Below are positions 11,459 to 55,896 of a DNA stretch of 64,000 nucleotides, in pieces. How positions within the stretch are numbered: position 1 is the stretch's first letter; each line of letters opens with the position of its first letter. Both the position numbers and the translations under genes were made by a program. Location of the stretch: assembly GCF_044324875.1 (NCBI RefSeq), contig NZ_CP172185.1; one strand, 5' to 3'. Under the pieces are notes generated by a model. It saw only the letters and a list, made by a program, of their open reading frames with translations. It ran no database searches and was not told the DNA's origin. This stretch comes from Escherichia coli (lineage in GTDB: Bacteria > Pseudomonadota > Gammaproteobacteria > Enterobacterales > Enterobacteriaceae).

Positions 11459-11929
11459 ATGAAAACACAACGTGGTTATACGCTGATTGAAACGCTGGTC
11501 GCGATGCTGATTTTGGTCATGCTAAGCGCAAGTGGACTCTATGGCTGGCAATACTGGCAGCAGTCGCAACGGCTATGGCAAACCGCCAGCCAGGCGCGGG
11601 ACTATTTGCTCTATTTACGTGAAGATGCCAACTGGCATAACCGCGACCACAGTATCAGCGTTATCAGGGAGGGGGCGTTATGGTGCCTTGTGAGTTCCGC
11701 TGCTGGGGCCAATACCTGTCATGGCAGTTCACCATTGGTCTTTGTGCCACGCTGGCCCGAAGTCGAAATGAGCGACCTGACACCTTCGCTTGCTTTCTTT
11801 GGCCTGCGCAATACCGCATGGGCCGGGCATATTCGCTTCAAAAACTCAACGGGCGAGTGGTGGCTGGTGGTTTCGCCGTGGGGAAGACTCCGGCTTTGTC
11901 AGCAAGGAGAAACAGAAGGATGCCTGTAA
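11459..11929 (+). CDS. ppdA: prepilin-type (pseudopilin-like) protein
   Basis: 156-aa ORF; N-terminal prepilin motif [15 protein letters not shown]. Confidence 0.85.
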
Positions 11930-12483: not shown

Positions 12484-12887
12484 ACCGCGAAAAGGGTGTT
12501 TCGTCACTGGCTCTGGTCCTGATGCTGCTGATTTTGGGTAGCTTGCTATTACAAGGAATGAGCCAACAGGATCGCAGTTTTGCCTCTCGCGTGAGCATGG
12601 AAAGTCAGTCATTGCGCCGCCAGGCCATCGTTCAGTCGGCGCTGGAGTGGGGAAAAATGCACTCCTGGCAGACGCAGCCCGCAGTTCAGTGCTTACTGTA
12701 TGCTGCCACCGGTGCCCGGGTTTGTCTGCGTTTATTGGCAGATAATGAGGCCTTATTGATTGCCGGTTATGAAGGCGTTTCGTTGTGGCGAACAGGTGAA
12801 GTCATCGATGGAAACATTGTTTTTTCGCCACGCGGCTGGAGCGATTTTTGTCCGCTGAAAGAGAGGGCGTTATGTCAGCTTCCCTGA
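12480..12887 (+). CDS. ygdB: DUF2509-family protein with hydrophobic N-terminus, in the ppd operon
   Basis: 135-aa ORF, GTG start overlapping the ppdB stop. Confidence 0.8.
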
Positions 12888-16576: not shown

Positions 16577-16751
16577 GTGCTGTATAAAAATTGCGCAATA
16601 TATCTGCTTGCTTTATGATGCGCACCAGTCACGGACTGATGGATATATAGACATAGGCTGACTCGTGCAGCACAAGATTAAATTCTGGCAGATGATTTGC
16701 GTTAACCTGTTGAATCTGGCCAGAAAATAAAGTTGATTATGAGGTCCGTGA

Positions 16752-19640
16752 ATGCCCAGCAGCACCTGGTTCAAAGCATTATTGTTGTTTGTTGCCCTTT
16801 GGGCACCCTTAAGTCAGGCAGAAACGGGATGGCAGCCGATTCAGGAAACCATCCGTAAAAGTGATAAAGATAACCGCCAGTATCAGGCTATACGTCTGGA
16901 TAACGGTATGGTGGTCTTGCTGGTTTCTGATCCGCAGGCGGTTAAATCGCTCTCGGCGCTGGTAGTGCCCGTTGGGTCGCTGGAAGATCCCGAGGCGTAC
17001 CAGGGGCTGGCACATTACCTTGAACATATGAGTCTGATGGGGTCGAAAAAGTACCCGCAGGCTGACAGTCTGGCCGAATATCTCAAAATGCACGGCGGCA
17101 GTCACAATGCCAGCACGGCACCGTATCGCACGGCTTTCTATCTGGAAGTTGAGAACGACGCCTTGCCCGGTGCGGTAGACCGCCTGGCGGACGCTATTGC
17201 TGAACCCTTGCTCGACAAGAAATACGCCGAACGTGAACGTAATGCAGTGAATGCCGAATTAACCATGGCGCGTACGCGTGACGGGATGCGCATGGCACAG
17301 GTCAGCGCAGAAACCATTAACCCGGCACACCCCGGTTCAAAGTTTTCTGGTGGTAACCTCGAAACTTTAAGCGACAAACCCGGAAATCCGGTGCAGCAGG
17401 CGCTGAAAGATTTTCACGAGAAATATTACTCTGCCAATCTGATGAAGGCGGTTATTTACAGCAATAAACCGCTGCCGGAGTTGGCAAAAATGGCGGCGGA
17501 CACCTTTGGTCGCGTGCCGAACAAAGAGAGCAAAAAACCGGAAATCACCGTGCCGGTAGTCACCGACGCGCAAAAGGGCATTATCATTCATTACGTCCCG
17601 GCGCTGCCGCGTAAAGTTCTGCGCGTTGAGTTTCGCATCGATAACAATTCAGCGAAGTTCCGTAGTAAAACGGATGAATTGATTACCTATCTGATCGGTA
17701 ATCGCAGCCCAGGTACACTTTCTGACTGGCTGCAAAAGCAGGGATTAGTTGAGGGCATTAGCGCCAATTCCGATCCTATCGTCAACGGCAACAGCGGCGT
17801 ATTAGCGATCTCTGCGTCTTTAACCGATAAAGGTCTGGCGAATCGCGATCAGGTTGTGGCGGCCATTTTTAGCTACCTCAATCTGTTACGCGAAAAAGGG
17901 ATTGATAAACAATACTTCGATGAACTGGCGAATGTGCTGGATATCGACTTTCGTTATCCGTCAATCACCCGTGATATGGATTACGTCGAATGGCTGGCAG
18001 ATACCATGATTCGCGTTCCTGTTGAGCATACACTGGATGCAGTCAATATTGCCGATCGGTACGACGCTAAAGCAGTAAAAGAACGCCTGGCGATGATGAC
18101 GCCGCAGAATGCGCGTATCTGGTATATCAGCCCGAAAGAGCCGCACAACAAAACGGCTTACTTTGTCGATGCGCCGTATCAGGTAGATAAAATTAGCGCA
18201 CAAACTTTCGCTGACTGGCAGAAAAAAGCCGCCGACATTGCGCTCTCTTTGCCAGAGCTTAATCCTTATATTCCTGACGATTTCTCGCTGATTAAGTCAG
18301 AGAAGAAATATGACCACCCAGAGCTGATTGTTGATGAGTCGAATCTGCGCGTGGTGTATGCGCCAAGCCGTTATTTTTCCAGCGAACCCAAAGCTGATGT
18401 CAGCCTGATTTTGCGTAATCCGAAAGCCATGGACAGCGCCCGCAATCAGGTGATGTTTGCGCTCAATGATTATCTCGCAGGGCTGGCGCTTGATCAGTTA
18501 AGCAACCAGGCGTCGGTTGGTGGCATAAGTTTTTCCACCAATGCTAACAACGGCCTTATGGTTAATGCCAATGGTTACACCCAGCGCCTGCCGCAGCTGT
18601 TCCAGGCTCTGCTGGAGGGCTACTTTAGCTATACCGCTACGGAAGATCAGCTTGAGCAGGCGAAGTCCTGGTATAACCAGATGATGGATTCTGCAGAAAA
18701 GGGCAAAGCGTTCGAGCAGGCGATTATGCCCGCCCAGATGCTCTCGCAAGTGCCGTACTTCTCGCGAGATGAACGGCGCAAAATTTTGCCCTCCATTACT
18801 TTGAAAGAGGTGCTGGCCTATCGCGACGCCTTAAAATCAGGGGCTCGACCAGAGTTTATGGTTATTGGCAACATGACCGAAGCCCAGGCAACAACGCTGG
18901 CACGCGATGTGCAAAAACAGTTGGGCGCTGATGGTTCGGAGTGGTGTCGTAACAAAGATGTCGTGGTCGATAAAAAACAATCCGTCATCTTTGAAAAAGC
19001 CGGTAACAGCACCGACTCCGCACTGGCAGCGGTATTTGTACCGACTGGCTACGATGAATACACCAGCTCAGCCTATAGCTCTCTGTTGGGGCAGATCGTA
19101 CAGCCGTGGTTCTACAATCAGTTGCGTACCGAAGAACAGTTGGGCTATGCCGTGTTTGCGTTTCCAATGAGCGTGGGACGTCAGTGGGGCATGGGCTTCC
19201 TGTTGCAAAGCAATGATAAACAGCCTTCATTCTTGTGGGAGCGTTACAAGGCGTTTTTCCCAACCGCAGAGGCAAAATTGCGGACGATGAAGCCAGAAGA
19301 GTTTGCGCAAATCCAGCAGGCGGTAATAACCCAGATGCTGCAGGCACCGCAAACGCTCGGCGAAGAAGCATCGAAGTTAAGTAAAGATTTCGATCGCGGC
19401 AATATGCGCTTCGATTCGCGTGATAAAATCGTGGCCCAGATAAAACTGCTGACGCCGCAAAAACTTGCTGATTTCTTCCATCAGGCGGTGGTCGAGCCGC
19501 AAGGCATGGCTATTCTGTCGCAGATTTCCGGCAGCCAGAACGGGAAAGCCGAATATGTGCATCCTGAAGGCTGGAAAGTGTGGGAGAACGTCAGCGCGTT
19601 GCAGCAAACAATGCCCCTGATGAGTGAAAAGAATGAGTGA
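16752..19640 (+). CDS. ptrA: periplasmic protease III (pitrilysin), M16 family
   Basis: 962-aa ORF with signal peptide and inverzincin motif HYLEHM. Confidence 0.95.
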   Translation: MPSSTWFKALLLFVALWAPLSQAETGWQPIQETIRKSDKDNRQYQAIRLDNGMVVLLVSDPQAVKSLSALVVPVGSLEDPEAYQGLAHYLEHMSLMGSKKYPQADSLAEYLKMHGGSHNASTAPYRTAFYLEVENDALPGAVDRLADAIAEPLLDKKYAERERNAVNAELTMARTRDGMRMAQVSAETINPAHPGSKFSGGNLETLSDKPGNPVQQALKDFHEKYYSANLMKAVIYSNKPLPELAKMAADTFGRVPNKESKKPEITVPVVTDAQKGIIIHYVPALPRKVLRVEFRIDNNSAKFRSKTDELITYLIGNRSPGTLSDWLQKQGLVEGISANSDPIVNGNSGVLAISASLTDKGLANRDQVVAAIFSYLNLLREKGIDKQYFDELANVLDIDFRYPSITRDMDYVEWLADTMIRVPVEHTLDAVNIADRYDAKAVKERLAMMTPQNARIWYISPKEPHNKTAYFVDAPYQVDKISAQTFADWQKKAADIALSLPELNPYIPDDFSLIKSEKKYDHPELIVDESNLRVVYAPSRYFSSEPKADVSLILRNPKAMDSARNQVMFALNDYLAGLALDQLSNQASVGGISFSTNANNGLMVNANGYTQRLPQLFQALLEGYFSYTATEDQLEQAKSWYNQMMDSAEKGKAFEQAIMPAQMLSQVPYFSRDERRKILPSITLKEVLAYRDALKSGARPEFMVIGNMTEAQATTLARDVQKQLGADGSEWCRNKDVVVDKKQSVIFEKAGNSTDSALAAVFVPTGYDEYTSSAYSSLLGQIVQPWFYNQLRTEEQLGYAVFAFPMSVGRQWGMGFLLQSNDKQPSFLWERYKAFFPTAEAKLRTMKPEEFAQIQQAVITQMLQAPQTLGEEASKLSKDFDRGNMRFDSRDKIVAQIKLLTPQKLADFFHQAVVEPQGMAILSQISGSQNGKAEYVHPEGWKVWENVSALQQTMPLMSEKNE

Positions 19641-22600: not shown

Positions 22601-23175
22601 TGACCGAGTGGATCACGGCTGTCCTCCAGGCACCTCTCAATGAAACGGGTGTTAGCCTGAGTCAGCTTTCCGACCGCGATAAACAGGTGGAGATGGAGTT
22701 TTACCTGCCGATTAGTGAACCGCTCATCGCCAGCCAGCTTGATGCACTAATTCGCCAGTTTGATCCGCTATCCGCTGGCTGCCCGCCGCTGGAGTTCATG
22801 CAGGTACGCGGCATGTTAAAAGGCTTTATCGACCTGGTATTCCGCCACGAAGGGCGTTATTACCTGCTCGACTATAAATCCAACTGGCTGGGTGAAGACA
22901 GTTCGGCTTACACCCAACAGGCTATGGCAGCGGCGATGCAGGCACACCGCTATGATCTGCAATATCAGCTTTATACCCTGGCGCTGCACCGTTATCTGCG
23001 CCATCGCATTGCTGATTACGACTATGATCGTCACTTTGGCGGCGTTATCTATCTGTTCCTGCGTGGCGTTGATAAAGAACATCCGCAACAAGGGATTTAC
23101 ACAACCCGACCCAACGCCGGGTTGATTGACCTGATGGATGAGATGTTTGCCGGTATGACCCTGGAGGAGGCGTAA
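19633..23175 (+). CDS. recB: exodeoxyribonuclease V beta subunit (helicase-nuclease)
   Basis: ORF 19624..23175; likely start at ATG 19633 ([10 protein letters not shown]..) overlapping ptrA end; Walker A GTGKT. Confidence 0.93.
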
Positions 23176-25001
23176 TGAAATTGCAAAAGCAATTACTGGA
23201 AGCTGTGGAGCACAAACAGCTACGCCCGCTGGATGTGCAATTTGCCCTGACCGTGGCGGGAGATGAACATCCTGCCGTCACCCTCGCGGCAGCCCTGTTA
23301 AGCCACGACGCCGGGGAAGGGCATGTCTGTTTACCGCTCTCACGACTGGAAAATAACGAGGAGTCACATCCGCTGTTAGCAACCTGTGTCAGTGAAATCG
23401 GTGAGTTACAAAATTGGGAAGAATGCTTGCTGGCTTCACAAGCGGTCAGCCGGGGAGATGAACCAACGCCGATGATCCTCTGTGGTGATCGTCTTTATTT
23501 GAATCGCATGTGGTGTAACGAGCGCACAGTGGCACGCTTTTTCAACGAAGTGAATCATGCCATTGAGGTTGATGAAGCTCTACTGGCGCAAACCCTGGAC
23601 AAACTTTTTCCAGTAAGCGATGAAATTAACTGGCAAAAAGTTGCGGCGGCAGTGGCGCTGACGCGGCGGATCTCGGTGATTTCCGGCGGCCCTGGCACCG
23701 GTAAAACGACCACCGTAGCGAAGTTGCTGGCAGCGTTAATTCAAATGGCCGACGGCGAACGCTGCCGTATCCGTTTGGCTGCACCAACGGGTAAAGCTGC
23801 CGCGCGCTTAACCGAATCTCTCGGCAAGGCTTTGCGACAGTTACCGCTGACCGATGAACAAAAGGAACGCATTCCGGAAGATGCCAGTACTTTGCATCGA
23901 TTGCTGGGTGCACAGCCGGGTAGCCAGCGTTTACGTCATCATGCCGGTAACCCGCTGCATCTTGATGTGCTGGTGGTAGATGAAGCGTCAATGATCGATC
24001 TGCCTATGATGTCGAGACTGATCGACGCCTTGCCCGATCATGCGCGAGTGATCTTTCTCGGCGATCGTGATCAACTGGCCTCGGTTGAGGCTGGGGCTGT
24101 GCTGGGCGATATTTGTGCTTATGTCAATGCCGGCTTTACCGCCGAGCGTGCCGGGCAGCTAAGCCGCCTGACGGGAACTCACGTTCCGGCAGGAACTGGC
24201 ACAGAAGCGGCATCTTTGCGCGACAGTCTCTGCCTGCTGCAAAAAAGCTATCGTTTCGGCAGCGATTCTGGCATTGGTCAGTTAGCTGCGGCGATCAACC
24301 GTGGTGATAAAACGGCAGTGAAAACCGTTTTTCAGCAGGATTTTTCTGATATCGAAAAACGGCTTTTACAGAGCGGCGAAGATTATATTGCGATGCTTGA
24401 GGAAGCTCTTGCGGGTTATGGACGTTATCTGGATCTGCTGCAAGCGCGTGCCGAGCCGGATTTAATCATTCAGGCGTTCAATGAGTACCAACTTTTGTGC
24501 GCCCTGCGGGAAGGGCCGTTTGGCGTGGCTGGACTGAATGAGCGAATTGAGCAGTTTATGCAACAGAAGCGCAAAATTCATCGTAATCCGCACTCTCGTT
24601 GGTACGAAGGCCGACCGGTGATGATTGCCCGTAATGACAGCGCGCTTGGGTTGTTTAATGGCGATATCGGTATCGCTCTGGATCGTGGGCAGGGGACGCG
24701 CGTCTGGTTTGCGATGCCGGACGGCAATATTAAGTCTGTGCAACCGAGTCGCTTGCCAGAGCACGAAACTACGTGGGCGATGACGGTACATAAATCGCAG
24801 GGATCGGAGTTCGACCATGCGGCGTTGATTTTACCGAGCCAACGCACGCCGGTAGTAACACGAGAGCTGGTTTACACTGCGGTAACCCGCGCGCGTCGAC
24901 GTTTGTCGCTGTATGCCGATGAGCGTATTTTGAGTGCGGCAATCGCCACGCGCACTGAGCGGCGCAGTGGTCTGGCGGCATTGTTTAGTTCGCGGGAATA
25001 A
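23175..25001 (+). CDS. recD: exodeoxyribonuclease V alpha subunit
   Basis: 608-aa ORF; start overlaps recB stop (TAATG); Walker [10 protein letters not shown]. Confidence 0.95.
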
Positions 25002-27953: not shown

Positions 27954-28030
<77 letters not shown>

Positions 28031-30268: not shown

Positions 30269-30712
30269 TTAAACCTGCTTCGCCACAGCGATAATCGCCT
30301 CGCTTAACGCATTCAACCCTTGGCTGCGTGAGGCGCTAAGCTGCGCACGCAATCCCAGCTCATCAAACAATGCCAGCGGCGACTGTGCCTGCAATTCGGC
30401 GGCGGTTTTCCCCTCAACGGCAGTCAACAACACCGCCAGCAGGCCGCGCACAATGCGCCCTTCGCTGTCGCCAAAGAAGTGCATTTTACCGTTTTCAGCC
30501 ACGGTATATCCCAGCCAGACGCGGTTTTCGCATCCGGCAATCTCTTTAGCCTGCGCTTTTAACTCGTCTGGCAAAGCCGGAAGCTGTTTCCCCAGCATGA
30601 TCAACTGGCGATATTTATCTTCCCATTGCGACAACGGTGCGAAGGTATTGCGTAACGTTTCTGCGGTTACGGTTGTGCCGAACGGATGTCCGGCGAATTG
30701 CGGGTTTGTCAT
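30269..30712 (-). CDS. csdE: cysteine desulfurase sulfur-acceptor protein (SufE-like)
   Basis: 147-aa ORF immediately downstream of csdA on the minus strand. Confidence 0.9.
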
Positions 30713-31917
30713 TAATCCACCAATAATTCCAGCGCGCGGTCAACGGCATTCACCAGCGCATCCACATCACTCTTTGTATTATATGGCGCAAATGAGGCAC
30801 GCAGTGTGCCGGTTACGCCTAATTCTGCCAGTAGCGGCTGAGCGCAATGCTGCCCGGCGCGCAGGGCAATACCGTACTCCGCCAGCAGCGTCACCATATC
30901 GCTGTGATGAACGCCAGCAAAATCGAAGGCCAGCAGGCTGGAATCCTGGCAGCGGAATGAACGAAAGCCTGGACGTTTCGCCAGCGCATCTTCCGCCAGC
31001 GTTGCTAAGCTACGGCTCCAGTTTTCAGCCTGGTTGATATCGTAATCTGCCAGCCATTCCAGCGCCGCGCTTAATCCTATGACACCAGCGACATTTGGCG
31101 TTCCGGCTTCCAGTTTCCACGGCGCAGATTGAGTCGTGAAGCCGTCAAAACTCACTTCGTGAATCATTTTGCCGCCACCCAGCCAGGGTGACATCGCTTC
31201 CAGCAGTTCTGATTTGCCATACAGCACGCCGATACCCGTCGGGCCATACAGTTTGTGACCTGAAAAAGCATAGAAATCAATATCCAGTTGCTGAACATCC
31301 GCAGGGAAATGCACCGCCCCCTGAGCACCATCAACCATCACCACCATCCCGGCTGAATGAGCAAAGGTAATCGCTCGCGCCAGATCCGGGCAACCGCCAG
31401 TGACATTCGACATTTGTCCCAGAGCAAGAATTCGACTACGAGGTGTGATCAGTTCTGGCAACAAATCGACATCCGGCAGTCGCTGCGCATTAAGCGGCAA
31501 TTTCACCACTTTGGATCCAGTTTGTTGGGCGACCATCAGCCAGGGGACAAGGTTGGCGTGGTGTTCTGCCACGCTGACAATAATCTCATCGCCCGGTTGC
31601 AGATGCGGACGCGCATAGCATTGTGCCACCATGTTGATGGATTCAGTGGTGCCGCGCGTCCAGACGATAGTTTTATCATCCGGTGCATTCAGTAATTGCG
31701 CCACTTTCTCTCGTGCAGCTTCATAACGCGCGGTCAGGCGTTGGGCTTCGGCAAACTGGCTGCGATGGACGTTTCCGGCGCTCAGGCTGTAAAACTGTCG
31801 GGTGGCTTCAACCACGGCTTCAGGTTTAAGCGCGGTCGCGGCGCTGTCGAGATAGACGCCCGCATCCTGTAGTGCGGGAAACTGGGCGCGAAACTGCGCG
31901 GGATTAAAAACGTTCAT
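30712..31917 (-). CDS. csdA: cysteine desulfurase / sulfinate desulfinase (PLP-dependent)
   Basis: Start at ATG 31917 ([16 protein letters not shown]..), 401 aa; class-V aminotransferase-like. Confidence 0.92.
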
Positions 31918-32351: not shown

Positions 32352-32558
32352 TAAAAAAAAGCACCGCAATTAGGCGGTGCTACATTAATCACTATGGACA
32401 GACAGGGTAAATGTACAGGAAGTGAAAAAAGGTAGCTTTGCTACCATGGTCTGAATCGCAGACCAATTGCAAACACAACAACACAACATCACAACCGTAA
32501 GCCAAAAGTTCACCAGAACACGCATTCCGATAAAACTTTTCGTTCCGGCTCAGGAAGT
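32352..32558 (-). ncRNA. gcvB: GcvB small regulatory RNA (Hfq-dependent, amino-acid transporter regulon)
   Basis: Reverse complement begins ACTTCCTGAGCCGGAACGAAAAGTTTTATCGG.., contains the GU-rich region GTTGTGATGTTGTGTTGTTGTGTTTGCAATTGG and ends in terminator GCACCGCCTAATTGCGGTGCTTTTTTTT; divergent from gcvA. Confidence 0.85.
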
Positions 32559-32686: not shown

Positions 32687-33604
32687 ATGTCTAAACGATT
32701 ACCACCGCTAAATGCCTTACGAGTTTTTGATGCCGCAGCACGCCATTTAAGTTTCACTCGCGCAGCAGAAGAGCTTTTTGTGACCCAGGCCGCAGTAAGT
32801 CATCAAATCAAGTCTCTTGAGGATTTTTTGGGGCTAAAACTGTTCCGCCGCCGTAATCGTTCACTCCTGCTGACCGAGGAAGGGCAAAGCTATTTCCTCG
32901 ATATCAAAGAGATATTTTCGCAATTAACCGAAGCGACGCGTAAACTCCAGGCCCGTAGCGCCAAGGGGGCGTTGACGGTCAGTTTACTCCCCAGTTTCGC
33001 CATTCATTGGTTGGTTCCGCGACTTTCCAGCTTTAATTCAGCTTATCCGGGAATTGACGTTCGAATCCAGGCGGTTGATCGTCAGGAAGATAAGCTGGCG
33101 GATGATGTTGATGTGGCGATATTTTATGGTCGGGGCAACTGGCCGGGGCTACGGGTGGAAAAACTTTACGCCGAATATTTATTGCCGGTGTGTTCGCCGC
33201 TACTGCTGACTGGCGAAAAACCCTTGAAGACCCCGGAAGATCTGGCTAAACATACGTTATTACATGATGCGTCACGCCGTGACTGGCAGACATATACTCG
33301 CCAATTGGGGTTAAATCATATCAACGTTCAGCAAGGGCCAATTTTTAGCCATAGCGCCATGGTGCTGCAAGCGGCTATTCACGGGCAGGGAGTGGCGCTG
33401 GCAAATAACGTGATGGCGCAATCTGAAATCGAGGCCGGACGTCTTGTTTGCCCGTTTAATGATGTTTTGGTCAGTAAAAATGCTTTTTATCTGGTTTGTC
33501 ATGACAGTCAGGCAGAACTGGGTAAAATAGCCGCCTTTCGCCAATGGATCCTGGCGAAAGCCGCTGCTGAACAAGAAAAATTCCGCTTTCGTTATGAACA
33601 ATAA
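32687..33604 (+). CDS. gcvA: LysR-family transcriptional regulator of the glycine cleavage system
   Basis: 305-aa ORF with LysR HTH N-terminus; adjacent to gcvB. Confidence 0.93.
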   Translation: MSKRLPPLNALRVFDAAARHLSFTRAAEELFVTQAAVSHQIKSLEDFLGLKLFRRRNRSLLLTEEGQSYFLDIKEIFSQLTEATRKLQARSAKGALTVSLLPSFAIHWLVPRLSSFNSAYPGIDVRIQAVDRQEDKLADDVDVAIFYGRGNWPGLRVEKLYAEYLLPVCSPLLLTGEKPLKTPEDLAKHTLLHDASRRDWQTYTRQLGLNHINVQQGPIFSHSAMVLQAAIHGQGVALANNVMAQSEIEAGRLVCPFNDVLVSKNAFYLVCHDSQAELGKIAAFRQWILAKAAAEQEKFRFRYEQ

Positions 33605-33622: not shown

Positions 33623-34018
33623 ATGACCAGCCGTTTTATGCTGATTTTCGCCGCCATTAGCGGCTTCATTTTTGTGGCTCTGGGCGCTTTTGGCGCGCAT
33701 GTGTTAAGTAAAACCATGGGGGCCGTTGAGATGGGCTGGATCCAGACCGGTCTCGAATACCAGGCGTTCCACACGCTGGCGATCTTAGGTCTGGCGGTGG
33801 CAATGCAGCGTCGCATCAGTATCTGGTTTTACTGGAGTAGCGTTTTCCTCGCGTTAGGCACGGTGCTGTTCAGCGGCAGCCTTTATTGCCTGGCACTGTC
33901 CCATCTGCGTTTGTGGGCGTTTGTCACTCCGGTTGGCGGCGTGAGCTTCCTTGCGGGCTGGGCGTTAATGTTAGTTGGTGCTATCCGTTTAAAACGCAAG
34001 GGCGTAAGTCATGAATAA
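33623..34018 (+). CDS. ygdD: inner membrane protein, DUF423 family
   Basis: 131-aa hydrophobic ORF; conserved position. Confidence 0.85.
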
Positions 34019-35943: not shown

Positions 35944-36366
35944 TTACGGTGTTACCCCTTTTTTTAAAAGAATATTCCCGTACTTCGCTCGTTCGCCTGT
36001 GATAACGATCGCAAAGGCTTTTTGTGCCCGTTCATAAAACGCAAAACGATTGATGCGGATGATGTCAGGACACGGGGCTTGTAGTGAAAGCGCATTACGG
36101 TAACGTCGTTCTACTTCAGGATCGAGAGTGTCACCTTCTACCGCCGCCATCATCACCAGCGGCGGTGCATAACTGTCCAGTTCAAATAACGGGATAATCG
36201 CCTGGAGCAAGTCGCTCACCAACAGGCCATCAGCGCGGATCACCTGCGGTCCCATCGAATGGGCGGGAAAGTGAGCATCGGAAAAAATAATTTCATCTCC
36301 ATGCCCCATCTCTGCCAGCACTTTCAATAGTTCGGGAGAAATTAACGGCGAAATTGTTTTCAGCAT
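35944..36366 (-). CDS. fucU: L-fucose mutarotase
   Basis: 140-aa ORF, RbsD/FucU family; within fucPIKUR. Confidence 0.92.
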
Positions 36367-36367
36367 T

Positions 36368-37786
36368 TCACACTTCCTCTATAAATTCAGGTTCAGTTTG
36401 CGGGTAGAAATAACGGTACTGATAATGAATCTGCGCGCGGGCTTCTTCCGGGCTGTTAAATTCCCCTACGCCATACCAACCGAACAGCGCAGCTCCTGCG
36501 ACGGTCGTTTCTGCGTCGTCGAGAACTTTTACCGGAATATCAAGCATATTGGCTTTAATCTGATTCCACAAAGTGTTGCGACTTCCTCCGCCGACTAACA
36601 ATAATTCAGAGGCTTTAAAGTGCCCGATTTTTTCCAGCATCTGTAGATTGCGCTGTAATTGCTCAGTTAACCCTTCCAGCGCCGCGCGATAGAAATGCCC
36701 CCGCGTGGTATTAAGCGTCACTCCTTGCCAGCCAGCGTTCTGACACGACAATAAATCACACTGCATTTTCACACCATCCGCGCCAGGTGCGATCAGACGA
36801 GCCTCTTCAATCAACATTTGCCAGGGAGTTTCAGCCGTCCAGAACAGTTTTCTCACCCATTCCAGCACGCCGGATGCCAGCCATTGCATACCTGGGTTAT
36901 ACAACCCTGCCTGACTATCCAGTTCGCAGGTGGAACCGGCATACTGACTTAACAGCGAAGTATCAACCTGGGCGCTACGGACCATTAAAATTTCCCATGT
37001 ACCGGAAGAGAGCACGGGTTCATTTTGTTCAGCACCAGCGCCAAAAAGGGCGAACTGGGTATCGTGACCTGCGGAAATCACCGGTATGCCAACGGGTAAG
37101 CCGAGCATTGCTGCGGCGCTGTTCTGTAACGTACCAATCTGTTCACCCGCTTCCACCAGACGAGGGAAGAGGCGGCGTGGAATACCGGTGGCGTGTAAAA
37201 TTTGCGGACTGAAATCGCGTTGCTGGATATCCAGCATCTGGCTGGTTCCGGCCATCGTGATATCAGTAGTGAATTCGCCGGTTAAACGGTGGTTAATCAG
37301 CGACGAAATAAAGAGCCAGGCGTGCGCGCGTTCCAGCAGTTGTGGATGATTTTCTTTCAACCACACCAACTTATATAACGTATTGAAACTAAAGGCTCCG
37401 ACGCCAGAAATAGCCTGCAACTGCTGTGCGGAGATCAACCGTTCAATATTGTCCATTACCGCTGCTGTTCGCGGACATTTCCAGCTAATGATCGGATAGA
37501 GCAGATTGCCTTGCTTATCTACCAGAGCGCCATCCACACCAAAGGTGGTGACGGCGATACCGCGGATGTGGCATTCAGTCAGTTCACTATTGATTTGCCG
37601 ACAGCAATCAGCAAAGCGTTGCAAAATGGCGTCTAAAGACCACTGGTGCCAGGTGGTGTTTTCCATCGCGATATCGCTGGCATTAGGCGTTGAGGCGCGG
37701 GCAACAATTTTTCCCTGCCGATTAACCGCGATGGCCCTGACATTGGTCGCGCCACAGTCGAGTACCAGGATAACTTCTTGTTTCAT
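36368..37786 (-). CDS. fucK: L-fuculokinase
   Basis: FGGY-kinase ORF; start placed at ATG 37786 ([17 protein letters not shown]..) because of AGGAG SD 7 nt upstream; ORF track extends to 37816. Confidence 0.9.
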
Positions 37787-45784: not shown

Positions 45785-47074
45785 TTAGCTGAACAGAGAG
45801 TAGAAGATTGCGGAGATTGCAATCAGACCCATCACGACAACGAATACGTTGCTGATGTGACCGCTGTACTTACGCATTGCCGGTACTTTCTGAATTGCGT
45901 ACATCGGCATCAGGAACAGGATCATCGCGATGATTGGGCCGCCCAGGGTTTCAATCATACCCAGGATGCTCGGGTTCAGGGTGGCAACAATCCAGGTCGT
46001 TACCAGCATGAACAGCGCAGTAATACGGTTCAGCTTGTTGATTTCGATAGACTTACCTTTACCACGCAGAGATTTAATCACCATACCGTTGAAGCCTTCA
46101 CGTGCGCCCAGGTAGTGGCCGAGGAAGGATTTGGTGATAGCGATAATCGCGATAATCGGTGCCATCCACGCGATAACCGGTGCGTTAAAGTGGTTAGCCA
46201 GGTAAGACAGAATCGAGATGTTCTGCTCTTTAGCCGCAGCCAGGTCTGCCGGAGTCAGGCTCAGTACGCAGCTGAATACGAAGAACATTACGGTCAGCAC
46301 CATCATGATGTGTGCGAATGCCAGGATCTTCGAGCATTTCTGTTCTGCCATATCGCCGTACTCTTCACGCTTCGCAACAGCGAAAGAAGAGATGATCGGA
46401 GAGTGGTTGAACGAGAACACCATTACCGGAATTGCCAGCCACAGGGTCATCCACAGACCGTTTCCGGTTGCCGATGCAGTGTCCAGAGACAGCGTTTCCA
46501 GTGCTGCGCCGTTCCACTGCGGGATCAGGTACAGAGCCAGCAGCATCAGTACGCCAACAAACGGGAATACCAGAATACTCATCGCTTTAACGATCATCTG
46601 CTCACCGAAGCGAACGATGGTCATCATACCCACGATCAGGATCAGCGACAGAATCGCACGCGGCGGTGGTGTCATACCCAGCTGGTGAGACATGAAGCTT
46701 TCAACTGTATTGGTGATTGCCACGCTATAAACCAGCAGGATCGGGTAGATAGCGAAGAAGTAGAGCAGGGTAATCAGTTTACCTGCGCCAATACCAAAGT
46801 GTTCTTCTACAACCTCGGTGATGTCTTCGCCCGGGTTTTTACCAGACAGTACGAAGCGAGTCAGACCGCGGTGAGCAAAAAATGTCATCGGGAACGCAAG
46901 GATAGCCATGATGATCAGCGGGATCATACCGCCAACACCGGCGTTGATTGGCAGGAACAGCACGCCCGCGCCGATTGCCGTGCCGTAAAGGCCCAGCATC
47001 CACATGGTGTCTGTCTTGCGCCAGGCACTACGAGAGTCTTTCGACGCAATCGTGCTGGTTTGAGTCGTTTCCAT
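45785..47074 (-). CDS. sdaC: serine:H+ symporter (HAAAP family)
   Basis: 429-aa multi-TM ORF. Confidence 0.95.
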
Positions 47075-50777: not shown

Positions 50778-51143
50778 GTCGACAGGGAGTCAGACAACGA
50801 AGTGAACATCAGGATGATGACACTTCTGAAGGACACACCAGGATGGTGTTTCAGGGAAAGGCTTCTGGATGAAGCGAAGAGGATGACGCAGGACGCGTTA
50901 AAGGACACCTCCAGGATGGAGAATGAGAACCGGTCAGGATGATTCGGTGGGTCAGGAAGGCCAGGGACACTTCAGGATGAAGTATCACATCGGGGTGGTG
51001 TGAGCAGGAAGCAATAGTTCAGGATGAACGATTGGCCGCAAGGCCAGAGGAAAAGTTGTCAAGGATGAGCAGGGAGCAACAAAAGTAGCTGGAATGCTGC
51101 GAAACGAACCGGGAGCACTGTGAATACAGTGCTCCCTTTTTTT
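50778..51143 (+). ncRNA. csrB: CsrB small RNA (CsrA-sequestering, multiple GGA motifs)
   Basis: About 366 nt with roughly 15-18 repeats of CAGGA(U/A/C)G-like motifs (catCAGGATGatg, acCAGGATGgtg, tCAGGATGatt, ttCAGGATGaag, ttCAGGATGaac, cAAGGATGag ...) and terminal hairpin gggagcactgtgaatacagtgctccc + T7; boundaries approximate. Confidence 0.85.
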
Positions 51144-51188
51144 ATTCCTGCTATTCTTCGCGGCAGTTTTTCTTATTGAGGTTGCTTT

Positions 51189-53201: not shown

Positions 53202-54554
53202 ATGAGTTCTTTAAGTCAGGCTGCGAGCAGTGTGGAAAAACGCACAAATGCTCGTTACTGGATAGTGGTGATGTTGTTTATCGTCACATCCTTCAACTAC
53301 GGCGACCGCGCTACGCTTTCTATTGCCGGTTCGGAAATGGCCAAAGATATCGGCCTTGATCCCGTGGGAATGGGCTATGTGTTCTCTGCTTTCTCATGGG
53401 CTTATGTTATCGGACAGATCCCTGGTGGTTGGTTGCTGGATCGTTTTGGTTCAAAACGCGTCTACTTCTGGTCGATCTTTATCTGGTCGATGTTTACCTT
53501 GCTGCAAGGCTTCGTCGATATTTTTAGTGGATTCGGCATTATCGTTGCCCTGTTTACGCTGCGCTTCCTGGTCGGGCTTGCTGAAGCGCCATCTTTCCCC
53601 GGCAACAGTCGCATTGTTGCGGCCTGGTTTCCGGCGCAGGAAAGGGGAACGGCGGTGTCGATTTTTAACTCCGCTCAATACTTCGCAACGGTGATCTTCG
53701 CGCCGATTATGGGCTGGCTGACGCATGAAGTGGGCTGGTCACACGTCTTCTTCTTTATGGGCGGTCTGGGCATTGTCATCAGCTTTATCTGGTTGAAAGT
53801 CATCCACGAGCCAAATCAACATCCGGGTGTAAATCAGAAAGAGCTGGAGTACATCGCCGCGGGTGGCGCGCTGATCAATATGGATCAGCAAAATACCAAA
53901 GTTAAAGTGCCGTTCAGCGTGAAGTGGGGGCAGATCAAACAGCTGCTCGGGTCACGGATGATGATCGGCGTTTATATCGGTCAGTACTGTATCAACGCCC
54001 TGACTTACTTTTTCATTACCTGGTTTCCGGTTTATCTGGTGCAGGCGCGTGGGATGTCGATCCTGAAAGCGGGCTTTGTGGCTTCCGTTCCGGCGGTTTG
54101 CGGTTTTATCGGCGGTGTGCTGGGTGGGATTATTTCCGACTGGCTGATGCGCCGCACGGGATCGCTGAACATTGCGCGTAAAACACCGATCGTAATGGGC
54201 ATGTTGCTGTCGATGGTGATGGTGTTCTGCAACTACGTCAACGTTGAGTGGATGATCATCGGTTTTATGGCGCTGGCCTTCTTCGGTAAGGGCATCGGGG
54301 CGCTGGGTTGGGCAGTAATGGCAGATACCGCGCCAAAAGAGATCAGCGGTCTTTCCGGTGGCCTGTTCAACATGTTCGGTAACATTTCTGGCATCGTCAC
54401 GCCAATCGCAATTGGTTATATCGTTGGCACGACTGGCTCGTTTAATGGGGCGCTGATTTATGTTGGTGTTCATGCCTTAATCGCGGTGCTGAGCTACCTG
54501 GTGCTGGTGGGCGATATCAAGCGTATCGAGCTGAAACCTGTCGCGGGGCAATAA
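53202..54554 (+). CDS. gudP: D-glucarate/galactarate transporter (MFS)
   Basis: 450-aa multi-TM ORF at head of gudPXD. Confidence 0.92.
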
Positions 54555-54555
54555 G

Positions 54556-55896
54556 ATGACGACACAATCCAGTCCTGTTATTACTGATATGAAAGTCATT
54601 CCGGTCGCCGGGCACGATAGCATGTTGCTTAATATTGGTGGGGCGCATAACGCATATTTCACTCGCAATATTGTGGTACTCACCGATAACGCCGGGCATA
54701 CCGGCATTGGTGAAGCGCCAGGCGGAGAGGTGATTTATCAGACACTGGTCGATGCTATTCCGATGGTGTTGGGCCAGGAAGTTGCGCGCCTGAATAAAGT
54801 GGTTCAGCAGGTGCATAAAGGTAATCAGGCAGCCGATTTTGATACCTTCGGCAAAGGTGCCTGGACTTTTGAATTGCGCGTTAATGCCGTGGCGGCGCTG
54901 GAAGCCGCCTTGCTTGACCTGCTAGGTAAGGCGCTGAATGTTCCGGTCTGCGAACTGTTGGGGCCAGGCAAGCAACGCGAGGCTATTACCGTCCTCGGTT
55001 ATCTGTTTTATATCGGTGATCGGACCAAAACCGATCTTCCTTATCTGGAAAATACGCCGGGCAACCATGAGTGGTATCAATTGCGGCATCAGAAAGCGAT
55101 GAACAGCGAAGCCGTTGTGCGTCTGGCGGAAGCCTCACAGGATCGCTACGGCTTTAAAGATTTCAAACTTAAGGGCGGCGTGTTACCTGGCGAGCAAGAA
55201 ATCGACACTGTTCGTGCATTGAAGAAACGCTTCCCGGATGCGCGGATTACCGTTGATCCCAACGGTGCATGGCTGCTTGATGAAGCTATTTCTCTGTGCA
55301 AAGGGCTGAATGATGTTCTTACCTATGCTGAAGATCCATGCGGAGCAGAACAGGGGTTCTCCGGACGTGAAGTGATGGCGGAGTTTCGACGGGCGACCGG
55401 CTTGCCCGTCGCGACTAACATGATCGCCACCAACTGGCGCGAAATGGGCCATGCGGTGATGCTCAATGCGGTAGATATTCCACTTGCCGATCCGCATTTC
55501 TGGACGCTTTCCGGTGCAGTCCGCGTAGCGCAGCTTTGCGACGACTGGGGGCTGACCTGGGGCTGCCATTCCAATAATCACTTCGATATCTCTCTGGCGA
55601 TGTTTACCCATGTGGGTGCGGCGGCACCGGGTAATCCTACCGCTATCGATACCCACTGGATTTGGCAGGAGGGCGATTGTCGCCTGACCAAAAATCCGCT
55701 GGAGATTAAAAACGGAAAAATTGCCGTTCCTGATGCGCCCGGTCTGGGCGTGGAACTGGACTGGGAGCAGGTACATAAGGCGCATGAGGCCTATAAACGT
55801 CTGCCTGGCGGTGCGCGTAACGACGCGGGCCCGATGCAGTACCTGATCCCCGGCTGGACCTTTGACCGTAAACGTCCCGTTTTCGGCCGTCATTGA
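54556..55896 (+). CDS. gudX: glucarate dehydratase-related protein (enolase superfamily paralog)
   Basis: 446-aa ORF clearly paralogous to the next ORF (shared blocks e.g. [37 protein letters not shown]). Confidence 0.92.

Follow-up and report, generated by a model that had tools for sequence, protein, structure and literature searches.

Is the translation of neighbouring Escherichia coli genes tied together where the stop codon of one overlaps the start codon of the next, and do all such overlaps work in the same way? We addressed this question in a 64,000-nucleotide (nt) stretch of the E. coli chromosome spanning aas to relA (hereafter the window), in which the stop codon of recB and the start codon of recD share one base within a TAATG pentamer at 23173-23177. 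The overlaps found here are likely to be ordinary intra-operon junctions of E. coli, at which termination-reinitiation couples the translation of co-transcribed genes. They fall into two kinds, depending on whether a Shine-Dalgarno (SD) sequence precedes the downstream start, and both kinds occur in the ptrA-recB-recD operon.

In such a mechanism, each pair would be co-transcribed, with the downstream start on or just 5' of the upstream stop. A ribosome ending the upstream gene would then already sit at the downstream start and could reinitiate there, and the synthesis of the second protein would thereby be tied to the translation of the first. What was observed here is the sequence of the junctions, how far they are conserved and which of them have an SD sequence; reinitiation and its efficiency are inferred.

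Stop/start overlaps in the window

A sequence-only reading of the window had listed seven junctions, and six of its descriptions proved exact: the TAATG pentamers of recB/recD and yqcC/truC, and the overlaps of 8 nt at aas/lplT, 10 nt at ppdA/ppdB, 4 nt at ppdB/ygdB and 8 nt at ygdD/rlmM. The seventh, csdA/csdE, had been described as a stop and a start that abut at 30712. The position is correct, but base 30712 is common to both genes, and the junction is a third TAATG. The overlaps of ptrA/recB and ygdB/ppdC had been left out. Each of the nine overlapping pairs consists of neighbours on one strand whose open reading frames are intact:

1773-1780, + strand: aas/lplT overlap of 8 nt, ATGAGTGA; weak SD
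11920-11929, + strand: ppdA/ppdB overlap of 10 nt; ppdB has its own SD, AAGGAGAA
12480-12483, + strand: ppdB/ygdB overlap of 4 nt, GTGA (GTG start)
12872-12887, + strand: ygdB/ppdC overlap of 16 nt; ppdC has its own SD, GAGAGGG
19633-19640, + strand: ptrA/recB overlap of 8 nt, ATGAGTGA; recB ATG from 19633, ptrA TGA at 19638-19640; no SD
23173-23177, + strand: recB/recD junction, TAATG; recB TAA at 23173-23175, recD ATG at 23175-23177, one base in common, spacing -1
30710-30714, - strand: csdA/csdE junction, TAATG; csdA stop TAA at 30714-30712, csdE ATG at 30712-30710, spacing -1
34011-34018, + strand: ygdD/rlmM overlap of 8 nt, ATGAATAA
51516-51520, + strand: yqcC/truC junction, TAATG; stop and start with one base in common, spacing -1; SD weak or absent

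The spacings of recB/recD, yqcC/truC and csdA/csdE (-1), of ppdB/ygdB (-4) and of aas/lplT, ptrA/recB and ygdD/rlmM (-8) lie within the range of approximately -8 to +6 nt that supports reinitiation. Among gene pairs read in the same direction, -4, -1 and -8 nt are the enriched spacings, both in E. coli and across prokaryotes in general, and termination-reinitiation coupling has been shown experimentally at these spacings (PMC6728339, PMC10666635, PMC12548453). The window pairs resemble known termination-reinitiation pairs (trpE/trpD, trpB/trpA and galT/galK, as well as hyfHI, astDB, ydbH/ynbE and menDH in Huber et al. 2019) in that they are co-directional operon neighbours with spacings of -1 (TAATG), -4 (GTGA) and -8 (ATGNNTGA or ATGNNTAA), make variable use of SD sequences inside the upstream gene, and frequently encode subunits of one complex. 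They differ in two respects: the pairs of Huber et al. were assayed with reporters, whereas those of the window were analysed here as sequences, and the window also contains longer overlaps (-10 and -16), beyond the most efficient range.

The identical octamer ATGAGTGA occurs at aas/lplT and at ptrA/recB, and both downstream proteins begin with Met-Ser. This is probably a coincidence within the ATGNNTGA class.

Conservation of the junctions across Enterobacteriaceae

Overlaps could also arise as by-products of genome compaction and of drift of stop and start codons, in which case free 30S subunits would initiate the downstream genes and the overlap would have no regulatory role. The -4 motif does evolve easily, with the start codon giving three of its four bases (PMC12548453). 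The junctions were compared across the family. One RecD scan of representative bacterial genomes yielded 80 Enterobacteriaceae loci (RecD identity 62-98%, 10-kb flanks), in which the upstream stops and downstream starts were placed by tblastn. For ygdD/rlmM, the count of 41 comprises the species in which both genes fell inside the fetched flank.

The results showed that the recB/recD stop/start overlap was kept in 80 of 80 species, with a spacing of -4 in 65 and of -1 in 15, Escherichia belonging to the -1 minority. ptrA and recB overlapped in 76 of 77 species (-4 in 41, -8 in 31, -1 in 2 and -20 in 2), the spacing in the remaining one being +413. The csdA/csdE spacing was between -4 and 0 in 45 of 46 species (-1 in 30, 0 in 8, -4 in 7) and +52 in one, and that of ygdD/rlmM was -8 in all 41, with ATGAATAA present in 11 of the 11 loci whose sequence was printed. 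For yqcC/truC, the spacings in four other genera were -1, -4, -1 and -1, while the truC/yqcA spacer in the same loci ranged from +6 to +19. The control spacers had many lengths: 34 distinct lengths (15-212 nt) were found for recC/ptrA in 75 species and 13 (9-93 nt) for gcvA/ygdD in 43 species. At the five junctions compared, the overlapping state is thus maintained across species and switches among -1, -4 and -8, while ordinary spacers drift. This supports the view that the tight junctions are under selection, which would be purifying relative to that on uncoupled spacers, and it argues against mere compaction.

One database protein (P0007, 179 residues) carries both a YqcC domain (PF04287) and a pseudouridine synthase domain (PF00849), and is thus an apparent YqcC-TruC fusion call. 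Most likely the call stems from an indel, or an error in one base, at the -1 junction of a short contig.

Shine-Dalgarno strength separates two kinds of junction

SD strength was calculated as the duplex energy with the tail of 16S ribosomal RNA, for which random 20-mers from the window gave a background of -2.7 ± 2.5 kcal/mol. As a group, the overlapping downstream genes did not differ from other genes in SD strength (p=0.50). The informative signal is instead the split into a strong and an absent class. Clear SD sequences preceded recD (-12.1 kcal/mol), ppdB (-8.5), ppdC (-8.3) and csdE (-6.8), whereas recB (-2.8), truC (-3.3), lplT (-3.5), ygdB (-4.1) and rlmM (-5.3) made up the group that we regard as being at background level.

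The overlaps at recB/recD, ppdA/ppdB, ygdB/ppdC and, more weakly, csdA/csdE may accordingly be called SD-reinforced. An SD sequence inside the upstream gene could hold the terminating 30S subunit, and it could also permit fresh initiation. At the SD-less overlaps (ptrA/recB, yqcC/truC, aas/lplT, ppdB/ygdB and ygdD/rlmM), the downstream gene can hardly recruit ribosomes by itself and so probably depends on those of the upstream gene. For recB, truC and lplT, whose energies are at the random background, independent initiation would be poor, which is difficult to reconcile with initiation by free 30S subunits. The very strong SD of recD and the good ones of ppdB and ppdC are, in turn, what one would expect if free subunits sufficed.

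The SD sequence of recD lies within the last codons of recB:

23163-23170, + strand: recD SD, GGAGGAGG, within the last recB codons (Leu-Glu-Glu-Ala)

Its energy surpasses 99.9% of random 20-mers from the window. A GGAG, GAGG or AGGA core was found before recD in 80 of 80 loci, despite 65 distinct C-terminal heptapeptides of RecB. The glutamate codons of the RecB tail were also strongly biased towards GAG (GAG:GAA 118:25, compared with 715:657 over the 300 codons before it; odds ratio 4.3, p=5e-13). An SD core present in every locus, together with a GAG bias in a variable protein tail, shows selection on the nucleotide sequence and not on the protein.

Before recB, the same core was found in only 1 of 77 loci. 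At that locus (L069), from Intestinirhabdus alba, and at no other of the 77, a gap (of 413 nt) separates ptrA from recB, i.e. recB gains an SD core only where the overlap has been lost. This again speaks against the overlap being a neutral by-product, and in I. alba the operon may exist in a naturally uncoupled form. In the only separated csdA/csdE pair (L082, +52 nt), GGAG precedes csdE, although the SD energy there (-5.8 kcal/mol) falls among those of the overlapping pairs. The two loci, one case each, fit the idea that an overlap could substitute for an SD sequence.

The ptrA-recB-recD operon

In E. coli K-12, ptrA, recB and recD form one polycistronic operon (Kalita et al., eLife 2025, PMC12342828). 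The K-12 operon has the same genes, gene order and junction sequences as the window, with the ribosome-binding site of recB inside ptrA. Kalita et al. deleted a 36-nt Hfq site from the ptrA 5' untranslated region (UTR) in K-12, and the number of RecB proteins per messenger RNA doubled from 7.9 to 16.3; the authors also mention a possible coupling between ptrA and recB (PMC12342828). RecB is present at 33-93 copies per cell, according to a secondary source. The Hfq-bound region is present in the window as it is in K-12, but differs at three positions:

16702-16737, + strand: counterpart of the Hfq-binding 36-nt region in the ptrA 5' UTR; 3 of 36 positions mismatched to the published K-12 36-mer

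The Hfq site lies at the ribosome-binding site of ptrA, 2.9 kb upstream of recB. An effect on RecB over this distance is what coupling from ptrA to recB predicts if an SD-less recB is fed by ptrA ribosomes; that recB is fed in this way is what we infer from the Hfq deletion, and is not a claim of Kalita et al. Control of RecB translation from the ptrA ribosome-binding site is also evidence against recB being initiated independently by free subunits. The recB/recD junction is not discussed by Kalita et al., and the conservation and the SD contrast described here come from the present analysis.

Taking the two junctions of the operon together, we tentatively suggest, as a possibility somewhat short of an even chance, that they represent two conserved designs with opposite roles: an SD-less ptrA/recB junction acting as a fixed step-down, and an SD-reinforced recB/recD junction that passes ribosomes on at about 1:1. 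With such a step-down, RecB would necessarily be synthesised at a small fraction of the rate at which PtrA is translated, which would explain how Hfq at the ptrA ribosome-binding site tunes RecB 2.9 kb away. At recB/recD, the SD sequence kept by codon choice would pass the RecB ribosomes on to recD near 1:1. Overlap and SD would be interchangeable means of ribosome supply, and the arrangement in I. alba (+413 nt, with an SD core before recB) fits such a scheme.

Chance expectation and genome-wide context

The TAATG pentamer occurred 146 times on the two strands of the window, compared with approximately 127 expected from a first-order Markov model based on dinucleotides. TG directly followed a TAA or TGA stop in 6 of 46 cases (2.9 expected, p=0.065); three of these six pentamers start a gene, and the other three, after ptrA, mltA and barA, start none. 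With 146 copies in the window and three stop+TG cases at which no gene starts, the pentamer itself was ruled out as a signal. The non-random feature is its placement at real gene boundaries.

Gene orientation gave a clearer picture. Overlaps were found in 9 of 37 same-strand pairs and in 0 of 14 opposite-strand (convergent or divergent) pairs (Fisher p=0.041), and spacings of 20 nt or less in 17 of 37 and 0 of 14 pairs, respectively (p=0.001). Spacings between -8 and +6 nt occurred in 10 of the 37 same-strand pairs (27%). Genome-wide, 707 of 2,987 unidirectional E. coli pairs (24%) fall between these limits (PMC10666635), and the window is typical of E. coli in this respect (binomial p=0.70). 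Three pairs that do not overlap come near to abutting: lgt/thyA, with a spacing of +6, and the following two:

36366-36370, - strand: fucK/fucU junction; stop and start 1 nt apart, spacing +1
54552-54558, + strand: gudP/gudX junction; stop and start 1 nt apart, spacing +1

Gene pairs spaced at -8 to +6 nt are 4.5-fold enriched for components of heteromeric complexes (PMC10666635). A matched output is a plausible selected benefit for the complex partners encoded in the window, namely RecB-RecD (in RecBCD), CsdA-CsdE and the Ppd pseudopilins.

Weighing coupling against its alternatives

The sequence-only reading had cautiously described the overlaps as consistent with translational coupling and as support for the operon assignments. 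This claim holds in view of the enriched spacings, the polycistronic nature of ptrA-recB-recD and the upkeep of the junctions across species. Overlapping genes leave no space for a terminator between them, and consensus scans, which are weak for this purpose, revealed no promoter-like or terminator-like sites above chance near the junctions.

Several points weigh against coupling as a general account of these junctions. Coupling efficiency drops sharply with distance, and faster for longer overlaps (PMC12548453, PMC10666635), which places ppdA/ppdB (-10) and ygdB/ppdC (-16) outside the most efficient range (reviewed in PMC12548453). Four of five native E. coli -4 pairs assayed by Huber et al. 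(2019) were coupled, with a gene-specific dependence on SD, but bioBF was uncoupled despite its -4 overlap (PMC6728339). Genome-wide, translation-efficiency ratios vary about as much among overlapping pairs as among pairs that do not overlap (PMC5318159). The SD sequences of recD, ppdB and ppdC are strong enough for independent initiation, and conservation could partly reflect the constraint from two overlapping coding sequences and not coupling. An overlap alone is not proof of coupling.

The bioBF pair and the variable efficiency ratios also speak for compaction and free initiation. The maintenance of the overlaps beside drifting spacers, the SD-less starts, the SD core gained in I. alba and the Hfq effect on RecB nevertheless make it unlikely that the overlaps are by-products without a regulatory role.

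A second alternative retains coupling but replaces reinitiation with RNA unfolding: ribosomes on the upstream gene would melt a structure hiding the downstream start, which new ribosomes would then use. This is an established model (PMC12548453), and of the overlapping starts, those of lplT and ygdB were predicted to be the least accessible (0.31 and 0.29, compared with a mean of 0.49 for other genes). In terms of thermodynamic prediction on 140-nt pieces, which is a weak test, the overlapping starts as a whole were as accessible as other starts (0.47 vs 0.49, p=0.88), a result that lends no support to coupling by the unmasking of structure and is no strong evidence against it either. The SD-less starts, even when unfolded, would moreover still have no way to recruit free 30S subunits. 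We regard unfolding as quite improbable, and termination-reinitiation as the better explanation of the junctions.

Start codons and annotation

The overlaps depend on correct start-codon assignments. The first 60 residues of RecB (1180 amino acids) and RecD (608 amino acids) are identical to those of chains B and D of PDB entry 1W36, and the N-termini also equal those of other RecBCD structures. Residue 1 of RecD was aligned with a start codon at 78 of the 80 loci, as was residue 1 of RecB at most loci; for the 2 recD and approximately 10 recB loci with a later onset of the alignment, the closest start in frame was used. The annotated starts of ppdA, ppdB and ppdC yield short prepilin-type leaders ending in G|F/Y-(T/S)-L-x-E (MKTQRG|YTLIE for ppdA, MPVKELG|FSLLE for ppdB and a leader ending in |FSLPE for ppdC), while with the upstream alternatives the leaders would be 18 or 80 residues long. 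Although alternative in-frame starts are present (recB GTG at 19624, ppdC TTG at 12848, ppdB ATG at 11680) and the cross-species comparison covers junctions other than the -10 and -16 overlaps of the ppd cluster, the structurally matched N-termini, the conserved residue-1 start codons and the short prepilin leaders make it highly improbable that some overlaps are annotation artefacts whose true downstream start lies elsewhere.

The gene map is the annotation of the closest complete E. coli genome, NZ_CM149870.1, made with the Prokaryotic Genome Annotation Pipeline (PGAP) and carried over by blastn; the names given by PGAP at the locus are recB and recD. A 2.5-kb piece around the recB/recD junction matched 5,425 of 5,426 complete E. 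coli genomes, the top match being 99.6% identical and annotated as recB/recD. The 51 transferred coding sequences aligned over their full length except for three that were incompletely represented: aas is cut at the window edge, relA is cut by the fetched locus, and sdaC is a pseudogene in the reference. Indels were found only in gudP, which is frameshifted in the reference. Every gene of the window has a start codon and a stop codon, and no internal stops.

Transcription signals and neighbouring features

Two features bear on the transcription of the overlapping pairs:

50787-51146, + strand: CsrB small RNA gene, 383 bits, with a strong terminator hairpin at 51111-51136
33501-33528, + strand: promoter-like match in the 3' end of gcvA (ATGACA, 16-nt spacer, TAAAAT; 10 of 12 positions)

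Between the csrB terminator hairpin and the downstream start of yqcC (51189), which is on the same strand, there are only 52 nt, so that a separate promoter for the yqcC-truC-yqcA operon would hardly fit. Transcription of the operon may rely on polymerases that read through the csrB terminator, or on a promoter within csrB. The gcvA-internal match is the best promoter-like match in the region. The start of ygdD follows approximately 95 nt downstream, and ygdD-rlmM may be transcribed from this site independently of gcvA. The supplement of Burkhardt et al. (2017), which is restricted to well-expressed genes, includes yqcC, yqcA and ygdD but not recB, recD, truC, csdE or lplT.

Further observations concern genes away from the overlaps:

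27954-28030, - strand: initiator tRNA-Met (CAT) gene in the amiC-mltA interval, single copy in the window
32353-32558, - strand: GcvB small RNA gene, 199 bits, in the ygdI-gcvA gap
45785-47074: sdaC, intact in the window
53202-54554: gudP, intact in the window

Three tandem copies of the initiator tRNA-Met gene stand at the amiC-mltA site of the closest complete genome, and the window is approximately 219 nt shorter there. The 411-nt amiC-mltA interval had a collinear alignment over at least 80% of its length in only 225 of 5,425 E. coli genomes, the best of which still had two tRNA copies. The single copy represents either a rare copy-number variant or a tandem repeat collapsed in the source assembly. 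The GcvB gene is divergent from gcvA, as expected for E. coli. The closest complete genome carries a truncated sdaC next to an ISVsa5 insertion, and its gudP has a frameshift.

Meaning of the overlaps

The short co-directional overlaps of prokaryotic operons are a well-described class, to which the junctions of the window belong, and they are in this sense already known. The ptrA/recB overlap, the genes and the operon have also been described in the literature. The recB/recD overlap was reportedly described in the original sequence papers on the operon by Finch et al. (1986). Only the contrast between an SD-less and an SD-reinforced junction, conserved within ptrA-recB-recD, is mildly new.

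Beyond annotation the overlaps are of little importance: they bear out the operons and start codons assigned in a well-studied region of E. coli and are a further instance of a general rule. The contrast within ptrA-recB-recD leads to a testable mechanism, in which the very low level of RecB would be set and regulated via the translation of ptrA, and RecB and RecD would be kept in step.

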